Shown: positions 12,244-19,174, numbered from the stretch's first letter. The stretch: DNA of 19,664 nucleotides from a virus (IMGVR_UViG_2529292909_000007:1-19664); one strand, 5' to 3'. Program-made: numbers and translations. Notes: generated by a model not told the origin, from the sequence alone.

Positions 12244-12333
12244 GCGGTAAGATACGGTGAAAAACAGCCTGAAAGCCACACCGAATATCCTCACCAGAAC
12301 GCTGTCAGTCATCAATTTCATCAACATGCCACA

Positions 12334-12522
12334 TCAACGCCTGTACGACTCACGCCTTACGTCGTTCGTCTCGATGGCTGCCCGTTTAAAGGCGGTCTGG
12401 CAGGAAGCGCGTTGCGCTGTTCCGTGGTTCTCTGAAAGCTCTCTCTGGTATCGGCCGCTCAACTTCTGCATCACATGAAACCAAAGCGCGCGGCCTTCCA
12501 TGTCCTGACGGACATAAATCAT
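12334..12522 (-). CDS. hypothetical 62 aa ORF overlapping the secretin stop (ATGA)
   Basis: Track ORF; start overlaps the gIV stop codon; basic, Arg-rich; no recognisable family. Confidence 0.25.
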
Positions 12523-13798
12523 CTCAGCACACGGTGAGCCTGAAGCACGACGATAATATCCGTTTTATCGCTGTCCTCAGAGCTGCCTGTAAATCCTGGC
12601 AGAAACGAAAATCCGCTTCGCCCCTTTGTGATTTTGCTACTGGCGAGACCACCCAGCACCAGAACGTCACCATCATTAACATCAACCCGCGTGCTGATTT
12701 CACGTTTTGTCAGTGTCGGACTGGTATTCACGCCCGTTGTCGTTTTCACAAAATCACTCAGTTGCTGGCTGATATCCAGTGTAATCACACCATCGAGCAC
12801 AACCGGCGTCACCGTGAAAATTGCCCCGCTGTTCCTGTACGTAACCGACTGCACCGGAGAACCGCTGTTGCCCTGATACGTCACGCTGTCAAGAACCGGC
12901 ACTTCCTGACCCACCGTAAACTGCGACTGACTGCCGGAAAGCACCGTAAGACGCGGATTACTGACCACATTAAACCGCGAATCCGTCTTAATCAGACTGT
13001 AAAACGCATTAAGGCCACCCACATTCAGTGTAAAAGCATTGCCACCTTCAGAACGGGCTCCCAGCGAAACGCCAAGACGATTTTTAAAGAGGTCTGCAAT
13101 AATCTGTAACCCGCTGGCGTTCCGCTCGGTAGTCTGCACCTCCAGAACGTAACCGCTAACCGTCACCTGTTCAGCCGGAATATCTATGCGGGGCAGTAAG
13201 TCACGAACGCGGCGAATATCCGCGACCGTTCCGCTGTATACCAGAACTTCTGCATCTGTGGCAGCCGAAACGCTGTTGGTTGCTGAACCGGAAGAAGCTG
13301 ACGATGCAGAAGACGCTGCAGAACCAGAATAATCCACCGTCTGTACATGATTTGAGAAAGAACCTGATTGTGTGACAGATGTCAGCATTGAACTGAGATA
13401 ACTGACACTGCGATATTTGGGGCGATACGTGAATACGCTGACAGGCTCCTTATATTCCTTCTTCGCCGGAATATAAATCCAGTCAACCCCGTTTCGGGAT
13501 GAAACCGATATACCCATATTTTTAAGGTAGGAAATAAAAATGAGCGTGGTTCCAGTGACTGCGTCAGATAAAAACTCACCACCCGCGTATCGCCTGCCAG
13601 TTCCGGCGATAACTGAAACGGGCGGTTAAACACACGCTGCCAGATTAACGATATCACCTGCGGCAGTGGCGCGTTATCCATTGACATATCGACACGGGAA
13701 GAAATCTGCTCCGGCGTTTTCTGTTTAACAGCAGAAAAGGAAGACAAAGGAAAAATAAATGTCAGTAACGAAGTCAGCATCAGTATACGAATTTTCAT
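12519..13798 (-). pseudogene. filamentous-phage pIV secretin, split by an apparent frameshift at A5 run 13536-13540
   Basis: Signal peptide and N-domain in ORF 13382..13798; secretin C-domain in ORF 12519..13517. One extra T in the run joins them as ...[16 protein letters not shown]..., resembling recalled M13 pIV (NLRNFFISVLRANNF). Confidence 0.8.
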
Positions 13799-13800
13799 TA

Positions 13801-14925
13801 TTAACCCCCTGCCCCTGTATTCACTGAAGACGGAAAGGATGAACGGGAAGAAACAGGCTTATTGCATGACCATGCGGTAATTTTCTCCCCGTCCAGTTCC
13901 CCTTCTGCCATGATGTTATACCCCGTAAAACCGCTGGCAGACGCCATGCGGAGGCGGTTTTCAGCATCACGAACGAAAATCCAGTTTTTCTGACCATCAG
14001 AAAAACGCCCGACAATACACCATTTTTCAGAGGGTGCAGGATGTGAATTATCCGCACCTGTAACCTGTTTATTGTCTGTATTATTTAAAGACTGATTTAC
14101 TGAATGATTAATATTATCCGCAGTCTGTGATTCAGACTTTGAGTCCACATCATTTACCAGCGTATTTTCATCAGGATTAAAAAACGACACTACATAATGA
14201 AAAACCGCCCAGACCGTCCCCGCCAGAAAAACAAGAACAAAAATAATCGTACGTTTTTTGAAAAGCACACCACGGGAATCAACGGAAGACTCCTGCGCAT
14301 TCTGTACATGATGGGAACTGTAAAGTCTGAAAACATCCTTGCTGTATTTACAGACATAATTAGAAAGAAACGTGGATTTTGTTATCTTCGCGCCATCATA
14401 AACATCAACACAATAACTACGGGACAATCCGAGTTGTTTAAGTTTACGCATCCTGAATGTCTTTTCGATACGGTCACGAAAAAAACGCGGAAGATTGGTT
14501 ACTGACTGGTTAACCAGAATAAAGTCACAGGTACGCCCTGTATCAGGGTCAGCATAATGACGGTGTTCCGCTGCAAAGATTTTTGCATCCTTTGAAAGAC
14601 TTTTATCATTCTCAAAAAAGCGATGACATTCATCAACCACAATTAAATCGCCCGGTTTGCACAATGCGCGCTCCTGATTCTCATGGACAGGCCAGAAGTC
14701 AGGGGCAATAATACGTTCATTTTCCACGAAAATAATTTCACCCGGACTGATTCCGTCTTTAAGCAGTTTTTTCTTTTCCGCATATTTAATGATTTCATCA
14801 TGATTAATCCCGTAAATATTGGTAACAACACGACGCCCTTCACAAATGGCAGGCACAATCACATTACTGACAACTTCATAGGACTTCCCCGAACCAGGAA
14901 CCCCCACATAAGCGAAAATAGACAT
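13801..14925 (-). CDS. filamentous-phage pI assembly ATPase (Zot-like), 374 aa
   Basis: N-terminal Walker A GVPGSGKS; central TM segment; stop lies 2 nt before the gIV start, as in inovirus gI-gIV. Confidence 0.85.
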
Positions 14926-14942
14926 GATTCATTCCCCTGCAA

Positions 14943-15230
14943 TCAGTTAAGAAAAGGAATACGACGAATAAAGAAACGCGTAAACATCGCCGATACCACA
15001 ACAGGAAGCACCACATCCAAAGAAAATACATGCAGCAACCAGAGCACACCGGAAGGCAGTCGGGAAAATAAATCCGATATATTCCCCGCAGAAGGAAGAC
15101 GGGAAATAACAAGCGGGATAATCTCAGAAATAAAAAGATAGACCGCAGTAAAAAGCACAAACTTAATCACAACGGCACGAAAAACAAAGGCAATCGCGGT
15201 ATTAACCGCAGCAAGCAATATAGCCCACAT
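14943..15230 (-). CDS. minor coat protein pVI-like (95 aa, hydrophobic)
   Basis: Position between gIII and gI; multiple TM segments; weak resemblance to M13 pVI around the LPS motif. Confidence 0.55.
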
Positions 15231-15250
15231 AATAACCTCTTATTATTACA

Positions 15251-17486: not shown

Positions 17487-17793
17487 AGCAAAAGCCTCGG
17501 GATTAACCGCAGGCGTATCAGAGAAATCCACACAGACAACAGAATAAACCTGTTGTTATCCAGACCCTGAATTCTGAGAAGTTGCGCTCATGATTCCCAC
17601 CCCGTTTAATGAACAGAATCCGAACATAAAGAAACAGGGTATAACCACGTCCTGGATAAATCAGATGAGACCAGACAAAAAGTATCAGCCGATTTAAAAA
17701 ACGGAATAATAAAAAAATCTTCCTCGTGTCCAAATTTTTCCAAAAAATGGAAAGCCTCAGAATAAGAAGGGAAAGATAAGGCGCATCCCGGAT

Positions 17794-17958
17794 CTAAATG
17801 CCACAAAAACCAACTGCTTTAAATTCCGGGAATTCCTCATAATCACAAAGAACAGGAGAAGGATAAAAGGACTCAGCCAGAACAAACCAACCGCCAAAAA
17901 GGAAAGTTTCGGTTATATTCAGCTTACGACGTAACACAGAAATATCAGGCGATTGCAT
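17794..17958 (-). CDS. hypothetical 54 aa ORF with strong RBS
   Basis: GGGAGG, 6 nt, ATG; translation MQSPDISVLRRKLNITETFLFGGWFVLAESF... Confidence 0.3.
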   Translation of the reverse strand: MQSPDISVLRRKLNITETFLFGGWFVLAESFYPSPVLCDYEEFPEFKAVGFCGI

Positions 17959-17976
17959 AACCAACCTCCCCCTCTT

Positions 17977-18273
17977 TTAACCAATATCCTCACAACGGGA
18001 AATAAGACCATTGCAAAGCGAAATATAACGCGTCAAAACTGTCATTTCATAAGAGTCAAGACGAGCATAAGAGTCATTCAATAATTCAACACTATGACGA
18101 AGACATGACCTGAAAAGATAAAGCCCCCTAAAATTATCTCCTGACTCAAAATCAATAACAGCCTGCTTATAAAGCTCAATAATAAGGTCTAGTTTCAGTC
18201 GAACAGAACCCGATTTACTGTGTTCTTCAAATGAAGAAATTGGTCGAATTGGACGAAAAGTCATAAACACCAC
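17977..18273 (-). CDS. hypothetical 98 aa protein between gV and the coat genes
   Basis: Track ORF immediately downstream of gV; no family recognised. Confidence 0.4.
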   Translation of the reverse strand: MVFMTFRPIRPISSFEEHSKSGSVRLKLDLIIELYKQAVIDFESGDNFRGLYLFRSCLRHSVELLNDSYARLDSYEMTVLTRYISLCNGLISRCEDIG

Positions 18274-18279
18274 CTTTAA

Positions 18280-18627
18280 CTATTTAGAACCTGGAACCGT
18301 CAAAGGAAAAAGAACAAGTTTAAAAGCAAATTCGATACTGCCAAAGTTACCTACAGTATAAGACGATGGATGAATAAGATATTTACCCGCAGCATAAGGT
18401 GGTTGTCCCTCATCAAGAGAAACCTTACATTCAATCACCTGACGACCAAGTCTGACAACGCCAACCTGAGAATACATAATCCCCTTAACAGGAGAGCCAA
18501 GAGAATCAACAACTACCAGCCCTGTTTTCTTATCTTTCTTGTCATATTCAAAAGAATCAACACGAACATCATCTTCCTCAAATTCAATAATAACAAGATA
18601 ACGCTCATCAACATTAATCATAGACAT
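18280..18627 (-). CDS. ssDNA-binding protein pV-like (115 aa)
   Basis: KVSLDEGQPPYAAGKYLIHPSSYTVGNFGSIEF resembles recalled M13 gVp (KITLDEGQPAYAPGLYTVHLSSFKVGQFGSL); AGGAG RBS. Confidence 0.8.
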   Translation of the reverse strand: MSMINVDERYLVIIEFEEDDVRVDSFEYDKKDKKTGLVVVDSLGSPVKGIMYSQVGVVRLGRQVIECKVSLDEGQPPYAAGKYLIHPSSYTVGNFGSIEFAFKLVLFPLTVPGSK

Positions 18628-18643
18628 TTAAATTTCTCCTGAT

Positions 18644-19174
18644 TTAACCTACTGCATAAAGTGGAGTTACACGCTGGCGATACCAGTCAGGCATAACTGT
18701 TTCCTGCATTGATATTTCACGCATATTATGAATAACAACACCGGGGGTTTTACTGGCATCGTATTCCATAGCAATATCAATGCCGATTTTACGAAGGCGG
18801 GCACGGTGTCGTCTGATTTGACCACCATTAAAATCAAATCGCTTGCCACACATCCACGAATAAGCAATAAAAGCCGTAGCATTTGCTGCTTTAACATTAT
18901 CAACAATGCCATTAGTTATTAAAGCTTCGGATATAGTATGAACATCATAAGCGGTTAAAGATAACTTGTTAACAATAGAAATAAATTCACGCTGAAGATC
19001 TTCAAGAATTTCAAATTCAGAATACCCCCAATAACATAAATCATGCTTCTGTAAATAGCGGGACTTTAATTTTTGTTCAAATCTGACAACCCCATTTAAA
19101 ACGAGAAATTCGTGTAATTGCTGAACATATCTGAATTCATTACTGTCTTCACCAAACTTAGATTTGATTTTCTT
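18644..19174 (-). pseudogene. replication initiator pII-like, C-terminal ~175 aa only, interrupted upstream by IS1
   Basis: Reading frame is open from the IS1 left end (19174/19175) down to the stop at 18644. Identity inferred from position upstream of gV in Ff gene order; sequence not recognised. Confidence 0.5.

Follow-up and report, generated by a model that had tools for sequence, protein, structure and literature searches.

The UPphi viruses are temperate enterobacterial inoviruses that carry accessory open reading frames (ORFs) of unassigned function and in which a gII-gV module is exchanged between otherwise unrelated phages (PMC7307601; also Ypfphi/CUS-1, PMC4266046). Their morphogenesis proteins are about 70% identical to those of IKe and I2-2 (PMC7307601, Shapiro & Putonti 2020). 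UPphi901 and Ypfphi integrate at dif, form tandem copies separated by an imperfect dif, and have a functional dif at the 3' end (PMC7307601, PMC4266046). Here, we analyzed a related arrangement in IMGVR_UViG_2529292909_000007, a viral stretch of 19,664 nucleotides (positions 1-19664, hereafter the window). The element under study occupies positions 12244-19174 on the minus strand. It is a defective inovirus prophage of mosaic ancestry integrated at dif, bounded on one side by a dif-like 28-mer and on the other by the inverted repeat of an IS1. The edges given in a preliminary description of this DNA were exact, since 12244 is the first base past the 28-mer (12216-12243) and 19174 is the last one before the IS1 repeat. 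We consider it highly probable that the element was once a temperate inovirus, integrated at the Escherichia coli dif site by the host XerCD recombinases, and that an IS1-linked deletion has left it as a crippled, immobile remnant.

The window corresponds to contig AIFY01000031.1 (GCA_000249655.2). The AIFA-AIFZ series of accessions belongs to the diarrhoeagenic E. coli (DECA) collection. We compared it with a sister assembly of this series (AIFZ01000020.1, GCA_000249675.2; locus L002), with the Logan assemblies of runs SRR094136 (which includes locus L010) and SRR094971, and with relatives in E. coli O158:H23 CFIAFB20140388 (NZ_CP076709; L001), GCA_030901405.1 (ABLRHC010000047.1; L013) and E. 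coli 700481 (NZ_CM129038; L011). The chromosome of FORC 064 served as prophage-free reference, and the set of scanned genomes comprised 5,426 complete E. coli genomes. Families were searched in Pfam, PHROG, NCBIfam, and PADLOC, and the whole window was scanned with Rfam and for tRNAs.

The 28-mer next to the element (AGTGCGTATAAGGTATATTATGTTAAAT, minus strand) can be written as AGTGCGTATAA-GGTATA-TTATGTTAAAT and has three mismatches to E. coli dif, a match found in none of 200 shuffled sequences. It is a hybrid att/dif site: phage-type bases occur in the XerC arm (A1, T7) and at the first central position (G12), and from there on, through the XerD arm, the sequence is that of the host dif. In FORC 064, hipB-hipA is followed by 76 bp, the canonical dif, a yneL-like helix-turn-helix (HTH) pseudogene, and ydeT. 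Window positions 9960-12242 align to this chromosome with 99.87% identity, through the dif position. This homology to a prophage-free chromosome places the insertion exactly at dif, and the hybrid junction is of the kind left by elements that use XerCD. The second junction (attL), with the host XerC arm, belongs to a region that is absent: AIFZ01000020.1 passes from the truncated gII (gII') through IS1 to codon 103 of hipA. The retained ORFs showed no recombinase domain, and no integrase is annotated in the intact relatives L004 and L005. The Rfam and tRNA scans of the window gave zero matches, and with no tRNA in the window, integration at a tRNA site is ruled out. The hybrid is the sole dif-like site in the sequence examined around the locus, where it presumably acts in the resolution of chromosome dimers.

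We compared the att arms of the window (12216-12243), L004 (8053-8080), L005 (4071-4098), L011 (6407-6434), and L013 (7266-7293). Relatives at the same junction carry AGTGCG(C/T)ATAA arms. In S21EC and JNE23-011, where intact relatives occupy the same locus in tandem arrays, the host junction is AGTGCGCATAA-TGTATA-TTATGTTAAAT and the copy-to-copy junction is AGTGCGCATAA-TGTGAC/TGTGTT-..GTTATGT, that is, attP with a degenerate XerD side. The AGTGCGTATAA arm of the window is also found in 700481 and L013, and the host junction of L013 retains two phage-type central bases (GATATA). There are thus two classes of att arms at the E. coli dif, one with AGTGCGCATAA and central TGT homology on the XerC side, and one with AGTGCGTATAA and phage-type bases at central positions 1-2 (GGTATA/GATATA). 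The two classes suggest different routes of strand exchange. Phage bases kept in the central region beside a host XerD arm are not expected from XerC-only exchange resolved by replication. The AGTGCGTATAA junctions would be better explained by strand exchange on the XerD side, or by a full exchange of both strands (TLC-like) with repair of the heteroduplex, than by the XerC-only route (CTX/VGJ-like).

All genes of the element lie on the minus strand, in the order gII'-gV-orf95-orf117-small transmembrane (TM) gene-gVIII-orf27-gIII-gVI-gI-gIV. The Ff-like order proposed in the preliminary description therefore holds, with matches in Pfam and PHROG, and so do the terminator and the tight gI/gIV coupling that it listed as further Ff-like traits. 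The gene gV (18280-18627) encodes a single-stranded DNA (ssDNA)-binding protein of 115 amino acids (aa) matching Phage_DNA_bind (E = 2.2e-12) and phrog_1199. The major coat precursor encoded by gVIII (17107-17397; 96 aa) matched phrog_2186, a virion structural protein (E = 3.3e-21). It consists of a long leader, also present in L013 (92 aa) and L001 (85 aa), and a mature protein of about 58 aa. The terminator stands immediately 3' of gVIII, at 17099-17079, as a Rho-independent hairpin with a 9-bp stem (five GC pairs) and a T-run; a hairpin with different stem bases is kept at the same position in L001, which is about 86% identical. The gIII-like adsorption protein (15251-16945; 564 aa) has a signal peptide and a C-terminal anchor domain. 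Its C-terminal 160 aa match phrog_7187 and phrog_3942, it has no match in Pfam, and it is 91% identical to the L013 protein (578 aa). It includes a Gly-Thr linker of about 94 residues, and imperfect tandem DNA repeats with a period of 18/36/54 nt span 15645-15865. The gVI-like minor coat protein (14943-15230; 95 aa) matches DUF2523, phrog_974, and the Ace-like phrog_306. The gI product (13801-14925; 374 aa) is a Zot-family morphogenesis ATPase (Pfam Zot, E = 1.2e-24; phrog_197, E = 1.7e-80), 93% identical to its L013 homolog. Only 2 nt lie between the stop codon of gI (13801-13803) and the ATG of gIV (13798). The coding strand is rich in T, with an AT skew of up to +0.41 on the plus strand. 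Such T-richness is usual in the plus strands of inoviruses.

A Zot/pI ATPase and gV, gVIII, gVI-like, and gIII-like proteins encoded in a compact unidirectional cluster with short spacers identify the element as an inovirus. The same gene set ruled out a reading of the locus as a type II secretion system or as a "Zot toxin" island. What is missing is a complete rolling-circle initiator, of which only residues 199-374 of 374 are present, without the N-terminal domain of G2P. The element is therefore a remnant, and its inovirus ancestry still stands.

The 176 codons of gII' (18644-19174) have a frame that is open through 19174, and neither a start codon nor a promoter of their own. They match G2P_X_C (E = 5.5e-17) and positions 198-368 of the 382-position profile of phrog_702, and share 89% identity with residues 199-374 of the JNE23-011 prophage protein (374 aa). 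Only PF05155 (G2P_X_C) is retained, whereas intact homologs also have the N-terminal Phage_CRI/G2P domain (PF05144). The JNE23-011 protein has 676 family members (E ≤ 1e-10); among the matches listed, the full-length ones are mostly of 370-376 aa, and many have both PF05144 and PF05155. In L013, the gII frame runs 278 nt further upstream of the point where the window enters IS1, up to the end of the contig. Two database proteins of 207 aa begin at an internal Met168 of the gII family, and may be the analog of the gene X product (pX); gII' lacks their first 31 residues.

The IS1 inverted repeat opens at 19175 with GGTGATGCTGCC. The window holds the first 490 bp of this IS1 on the plus strand (19175-19664; left inverted repeat and insA, with the InsA ORF at 19230-19529) and ends inside it, as is common for draft contigs. 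These 490 bp match the IS1 of P1, SfIV, and other records at 99-100% identity. It had been proposed that gII is cut by IS1 and that its N-terminal part could be located beyond the insertion sequence. The replication gene is indeed destroyed at IS1, but by a deletion and not by mere insertion. AIFZ01000020.1 reads across the whole IS1 (768 bp), from gII' on one side to hipA codons 103 to 1 and hipB on the other, and codon 103 of hipA stands where the N-terminal part of gII was sought. The homology to E. coli in this contig stops exactly at the IS1 boundary, and the 9-mers flanking IS1 (GTGACGTTA vs AAGAAAATC) show no 9-bp target duplication. The two Logan contigs reaching this end of the prophage begin at the IS1 terminus, which is fused to gII'; each read set therefore contains the junction. 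A truncated hipA beyond IS1 and the lack of a target duplication imply that IS1 marks a deletion rather than a simple insertion.

The window stops inside IS1, and this leaves room for a different account, in which there was a plain IS1 insertion, or an intact segment lies between two copies of IS1, and the gII N terminus, the regulator, the origin, and attL lie just beyond the end of the contig, so that the prophage would be interrupted but would retain its full content. When a repeat is collapsed, a draft assembler may connect its unique flanks, and the path from gII' through IS1 to the truncated hipA in AIFZ01000020.1 is thus not proof of a deletion. We nevertheless find this account highly improbable: the same IS1 also cuts hipA short, its two flanking 9-mers do not form a target duplication, and the gII'/IS1 junction is the breakpoint of both Logan contigs. 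Moreover, a dedicated protein search with the N-terminal 198 aa of gII, of limited sensitivity and not exhaustive, returned no fragment from GCA_000249655, GCA_000249675, SRR094136, or SRR094971, and the two short E. coli gII fragments looked up in that search belong to unrelated assemblies.

With a deletion as the preferred explanation, its extent can be delimited by comparison with FORC 064. The host DNA that is missing amounts to 1,090 bp, corresponding to hipA codons 104-440 and the 76-bp spacer. The att junction on the hipA side and gII codons 1-198 are missing as well. Taking JNE23-011 as a model, about 0.9 kb of phage DNA was probably lost too, with a divergent HTH regulator and a small ORF, and the lost upstream intergenic region probably held the plus-strand origin. 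The remnant is common to two DECA strains, with the same IS1 junction. On the host side, the HipA toxin gene is cut after codon 103 and hipB is intact (L002, 4392-4984), leaving an orphan HipB antitoxin without the HipA kinase. This loss could bear on the persistence phenotypes of this DECA lineage.

The second apparent lesion of the element is in gIV (12519-13798), which encodes the secretin (Pfam Secretin and Secretin_N; phrog_1012, "protein IV of M13," E = 1.5e-115). The window contains it as two ORFs (13382-13798 and 12519-13517), separated by a frameshift at a run of five T (13536-13540, coding strand). The split noted in the preliminary description is true of the deposited sequence, but it is most likely an assembly error. 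Resolving the homopolymer, a check suggested there, gave six T and an intact secretin of 426 aa in three other assemblies, among them L002 and L003; one of the three probably comes from reads of the window strain. The corrected protein is colinear with the 426-aa protein of L001 across the frameshift point, with 90% identity. The comparison of window positions 3805-19664 with AIFZ01000020.1 (99.94% identity over 15.9 kb) revealed two substitutions, both in IS1, and eight single-base indels (at 5843, 6661, 9085, 13541, 17383, 17717, 17810, and 19486). All eight indels fall in short single-base runs, seven of them in A runs of 5 to 7 and one being CC vs C (5843, in a MuB-like gene). At 19486, the window reads A5 in the A6C programmed-frameshift motif of IS1. 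Given this pattern, the apparent pseudogenes of the window contig are untrustworthy when judged from its sequence alone.

The Logan assemblies help to separate errors from real differences. That of SRR094971 is 100% identical to AIFZ01000020.1. That of SRR094136 shares the window alleles at 17383 and 17717, yet has six bases at the gIV site and at 17805-17809. In the simplest reading, SRR094136 derives from the window strain, the indels at 17383 and 17717 are real strain differences, and those in gIV and at 17810 are consensus errors. Were the gIV frameshift real in this strain, the remnant would have no functional secretin, and export would be impossible even with a helper phage. The deposited contig does read five T, and the differences at 17383 and 17717, reproduced in independent assemblies, show that slippage mutations arise in the element. 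Still, a real frameshift is unlikely, because the assembly sharing both window-specific alleles has six T and an intact gIV, and because single-base undercalls in MuB (5843) and in the A6C motif of IS1 (19486) are a typical signature of sequencing error. The gIV split is thus very probably a one-base undercall of the homopolymer in the consensus and not a lesion.

The genes between gV and gVIII include a genuine second lesion. The small single-TM protein gene (17400-17591) has 63 codons in relatives, and its codon 12 is the ochre codon TAA (17556-17558) in both DECA assemblies (window and L002) and CAA in L001 and L013. The gene is probably inactivated. Its position directly upstream of gVIII makes it a candidate for a minor coat protein of the pVII/pIX type. 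Upstream of it, orf95 (17977-18264) has a good Shine-Dalgarno sequence and is called in L002, L009, L010, and L013 (98% identical in the latter). The following orf117 (17606-17958) is a 117-aa ORF in L010 (SRR094136) and L013, with 98% identity. In the window it is broken by an A5 run at 17805-17809, which is A6 elsewhere. A 146-aa ORF of the sister assembly was dropped in favor of the 117-aa form, which is found in SRR094136 and in the 94% identical relative L013 and ends neatly before the next gene. Neither orf95 nor orf117 had any family match in Pfam, NCBIfam, PHROG, or PADLOC. L013 has both of them and the small TM gene, at 94-98% identity. The space from the gVIII terminator to gIII holds orf27 (16976-17059), a conserved hydrophobic ORF of 27 aa. 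Its amino acids are identical in L013 despite about eight nucleotide changes, every one of them synonymous, and L001 has a 29-aa homolog. This makes orf27 a candidate small virion or assembly protein.

The history of the locus is very probably as follows. A temperate inovirus integrated at the E. coli dif via host XerCD. IS1 inserted later, followed by an IS1-adjacent deletion or by recombination between two IS1 copies, spanning hipA codon 104 to gII codon 198. By homology to Ff gpII, the lost N-terminal domain of G2P would be the one carrying the nicking activity. These events left a single promoter-poor copy of gV, orf95, orf117, the coat genes, and the gI/gIV pair for assembly and export. 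Phage production from an inovirus integrated at dif would need tandem copies and an active initiator. Since the remnant has no N-terminal initiator domain, no upstream region, and a single copy, neither replication nor a circular genome is expected from it, in agreement with the earlier view that a prophage whose initiator is truncated at IS1 would not replicate autonomously. Without nicking, replication, or circularisation, it should be inherited vertically as chromosomal DNA. The remaining genes are presumably not expressed. A promoter scan found 10 promoter-like sites, which is not above chance (12.3 expected in shuffled sequence), the promoter-like site within gII' (18972-18944) is a consensus match only, and insA of IS1 is directed away from the prophage genes.

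Could the remnant have been kept because it is useful? It might serve satellite-like filamentous elements as a non-mobile helper or exporter (gI/gIV and coat genes), or provide superinfection exclusion based on gIII. In that case, expressed gI-gIV and coat genes might package satellites encoding only rep and ssb, or block related inoviruses. The morphogenesis genes are all full-length and 91-100% identical to those of the close relative L013, a remnant with the same IS1 junction exists in two strains, and rep+ssb-only units devoid of morphogenesis genes do occur at dif in E. coli 700481. On the other hand, the two strains have zero substitutions in the remnant, which gives no power to detect selection. 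The ochre codon in the small TM gene and the frameshifts of orf117 and gVIII in the sister strain form a pattern of decay, the regulator and the upstream promoter region are probably gone, and promoter-like matches are no commoner than in shuffled sequence. A retained function of this sort appears very unlikely to us.

Several points weigh against the interpretation of the element as an immobilised remnant. The far side of the IS1 is known only from AIFZ01000020.1, whose path through this repeated sequence could be a collapsed shortcut. The loss of the plus-strand origin rests on analogy, and a conserved hairpin-bearing module (12290-12518) is retained. The copy number, the lack of circular forms, and the homopolymer calls come from assemblies and not from reads. 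Finally, full-length genes so close to those of the L013 prophage make residual expression or complementation in trans possible. The significance of the remnant is modest: the annotation of the locus is clarified, the element being a dif-integrated remnant and the split secretin a homopolymer artefact of an old draft.

The non-coding segment between gIV and the att site (12244-12518, minus strand) contains the conserved module, at about 12290-12518. Copies of this module, of about 220-270 nt and 71-92% identical, occur at the same position in L001 (5975-6137), L004 (8081-8340), L005 (4647-4870), L006, L011 (6435-6707), and L012 (9345-9561). It was found in 67 of the 5,426 complete E. coli genomes, with up to 24 places per genome (ZH48, ZH49). 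A fold of the alignment contains several hairpins, with seven pairs showing compensatory changes. The single-sequence DNA fold of 12200-12530 is unexceptional (z = -0.63), and no inverted repeats of at least 12 nt were found in the residual intergenic region; we therefore claim no packaging signal or origin hairpin of the Ff type. The module accompanies three unrelated families of initiators (G2P, Rep_trans, and Phage_GPA). Such independence from the Rep family suggests a cis element read by the host, e.g., a minus-strand origin or a terminator, rather than an initiator-specific plus origin. It may be a host-read minus-strand origin not yet described for these phages. Among the carriers of the module, L006 is the plasmid pJNE25-005_3 (NZ_AP045060; 9613 bp), which has an inovirus replication gene (fragmented in the annotation), an attP-like site (1647-1674), and an IS3-family insertion. 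This plasmid is probably the replicative form of a filamentous phage.

Other elements have accumulated around this site. In E. coli 700481, two tandem units of 3.56 kb lie between dif and a complete inovirus prophage (L011, 6435-13350). Morphogenesis genes are missing from both units, whose coding content is limited to a G2P replication protein, an ssDNA-binding protein, and two small ORFs (one HTH); two different attP-like sites are found in each. The tandem units look like a satellite filamentous element. The remnant of the window adds an example of the E. coli dif as a hotspot where mosaic filamentous elements accumulate and decay. Three parts of the dif-adjacent fimbrial operon (window 11545) that S21EC and 700481 possess are missing here: the 5' portion of the usher gene, the gene for the chaperone, and a fimA-like gene. 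This leaves a ydeT fragment and the yneL-like HTH pseudogene, as in FORC 064. Further away, the window contains a remnant of a Mu-like transposable prophage (2741-9959) that interrupts the fimbrial gene ydeS (insertion point 9959/9960). Its genes encode a repressor-like HTH protein (9168-9713), a Ner-like HTH protein (8754-8984), MuA (6664-8751), MuB (5780-6589, with a one-base gap in a C run at 5843 relative to the sister), a tail-fibre assembly protein (3804-4325), and a Gin-like invertase (2741-3313). Its morphogenesis region appears to have been deleted, because the early genes are almost directly followed by the tail-fibre assembly gene and the invertase.

None of the 5,426 complete E. 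coli genomes covers at least 80% of the prophage query. The DNA search of a phage collection matched IS1 only, with no named phage relative, and a scan of species-representative genomes with gII' gave no match. L013, a close relative, occupies the same chromosomal locus, and its genes follow the same order, with orf95, orf117, the small TM gene, and orf27 all present. It shares 93.7% nucleotide identity over window positions 9960-19174, with 91-100% aa identity per gene, and the same AGTGCGTATAA arm. It differs by a gII that continues past the IS1 point, by an intact small TM gene (CAA), and by the center of its hybrid dif (GATATA vs GGTATA in the window). The morphogenesis half of the element (12355-17060) is 86-88% identical in DNA to prophages of O158:H23 CFIAFB20140388 and 2012C-4221. 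Unlike the window element, these two prophages lie away from dif, their initiator is of the Rep_trans type, and they come with an IS110-family transposase. The former (L001) shares gVIII-gIV and the downstream module, lacks orf95 and orf117, and sits between sanA/PLD and yeiS. The IS110-family transposase flanks the L001 (13256-14209) and L012 (16984-17946) prophages, and the L012 element lies inside an autotransporter gene. Inovirus prophages flanked by IS110 resemble the filamentous prophages of Neisseria. In the S21EC and JNE prophages, the similarity concerns the other end of the element: the gII'-gV module is 85-87% identical in DNA, but the morphogenesis genes reach only about 67-72% at best. 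Judged by these identities, the element is a mosaic of E. coli prophage modules.

The element resembles Ff (M13, f1, fd) and If1 in its gene order, the terminator after gVIII, the pIV secretin, and the T-rich coding strand. Neither Ff nor If1 integrates, both being episomal, whereas the window element is inserted at dif and has extra ORFs between gV and gVIII. The pIII linker is Gly-Thr in the window and Gly-Ser in Ff. The pI of the window had no tblastn match (E ≤ 1e-5) in the records of Ff, IKe, I2-2, and If1, and is at most 37% identical to that of deposited phages (inoviruses from gut metagenomes). The pI, pIII, and pVIII sequences have no detectable likeness to those of Ff, and gII' is 50.6% identical to the replication protein of If1. 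On these protein comparisons, the element is ordered like Ff without being a relative of Ff.

With UPphi901, Ypfphi, and CUS-1, the element shares integration at dif by XerCD, accessory ORFs, and an exchangeable gII-gV module. It differs from the UPphi viruses by its single copy, its truncated gII, the lack of a regulator, and a pI without a match in IKe/I2-2. By its morphogenesis genes, the element is not a UPphi virus, a distinction drawn via IKe/I2-2 and not from the UPphi901 sequence itself. The Vibrio phages CTXphi, VGJphi, and TLCphi, which are integrative mobile elements exploiting Xer (IMEX), also use XerCD and dif, and the pI of the window belongs, like Zot of CTXphi, to the Zot family (26% identity). 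CTXphi prophages cannot simply excise, and their progeny arise from tandem copies by initiator-driven rolling-circle replication. In contrast to these Vibrio phages, the window element encodes its own secretin, and its host junction retains a phage-type central base.

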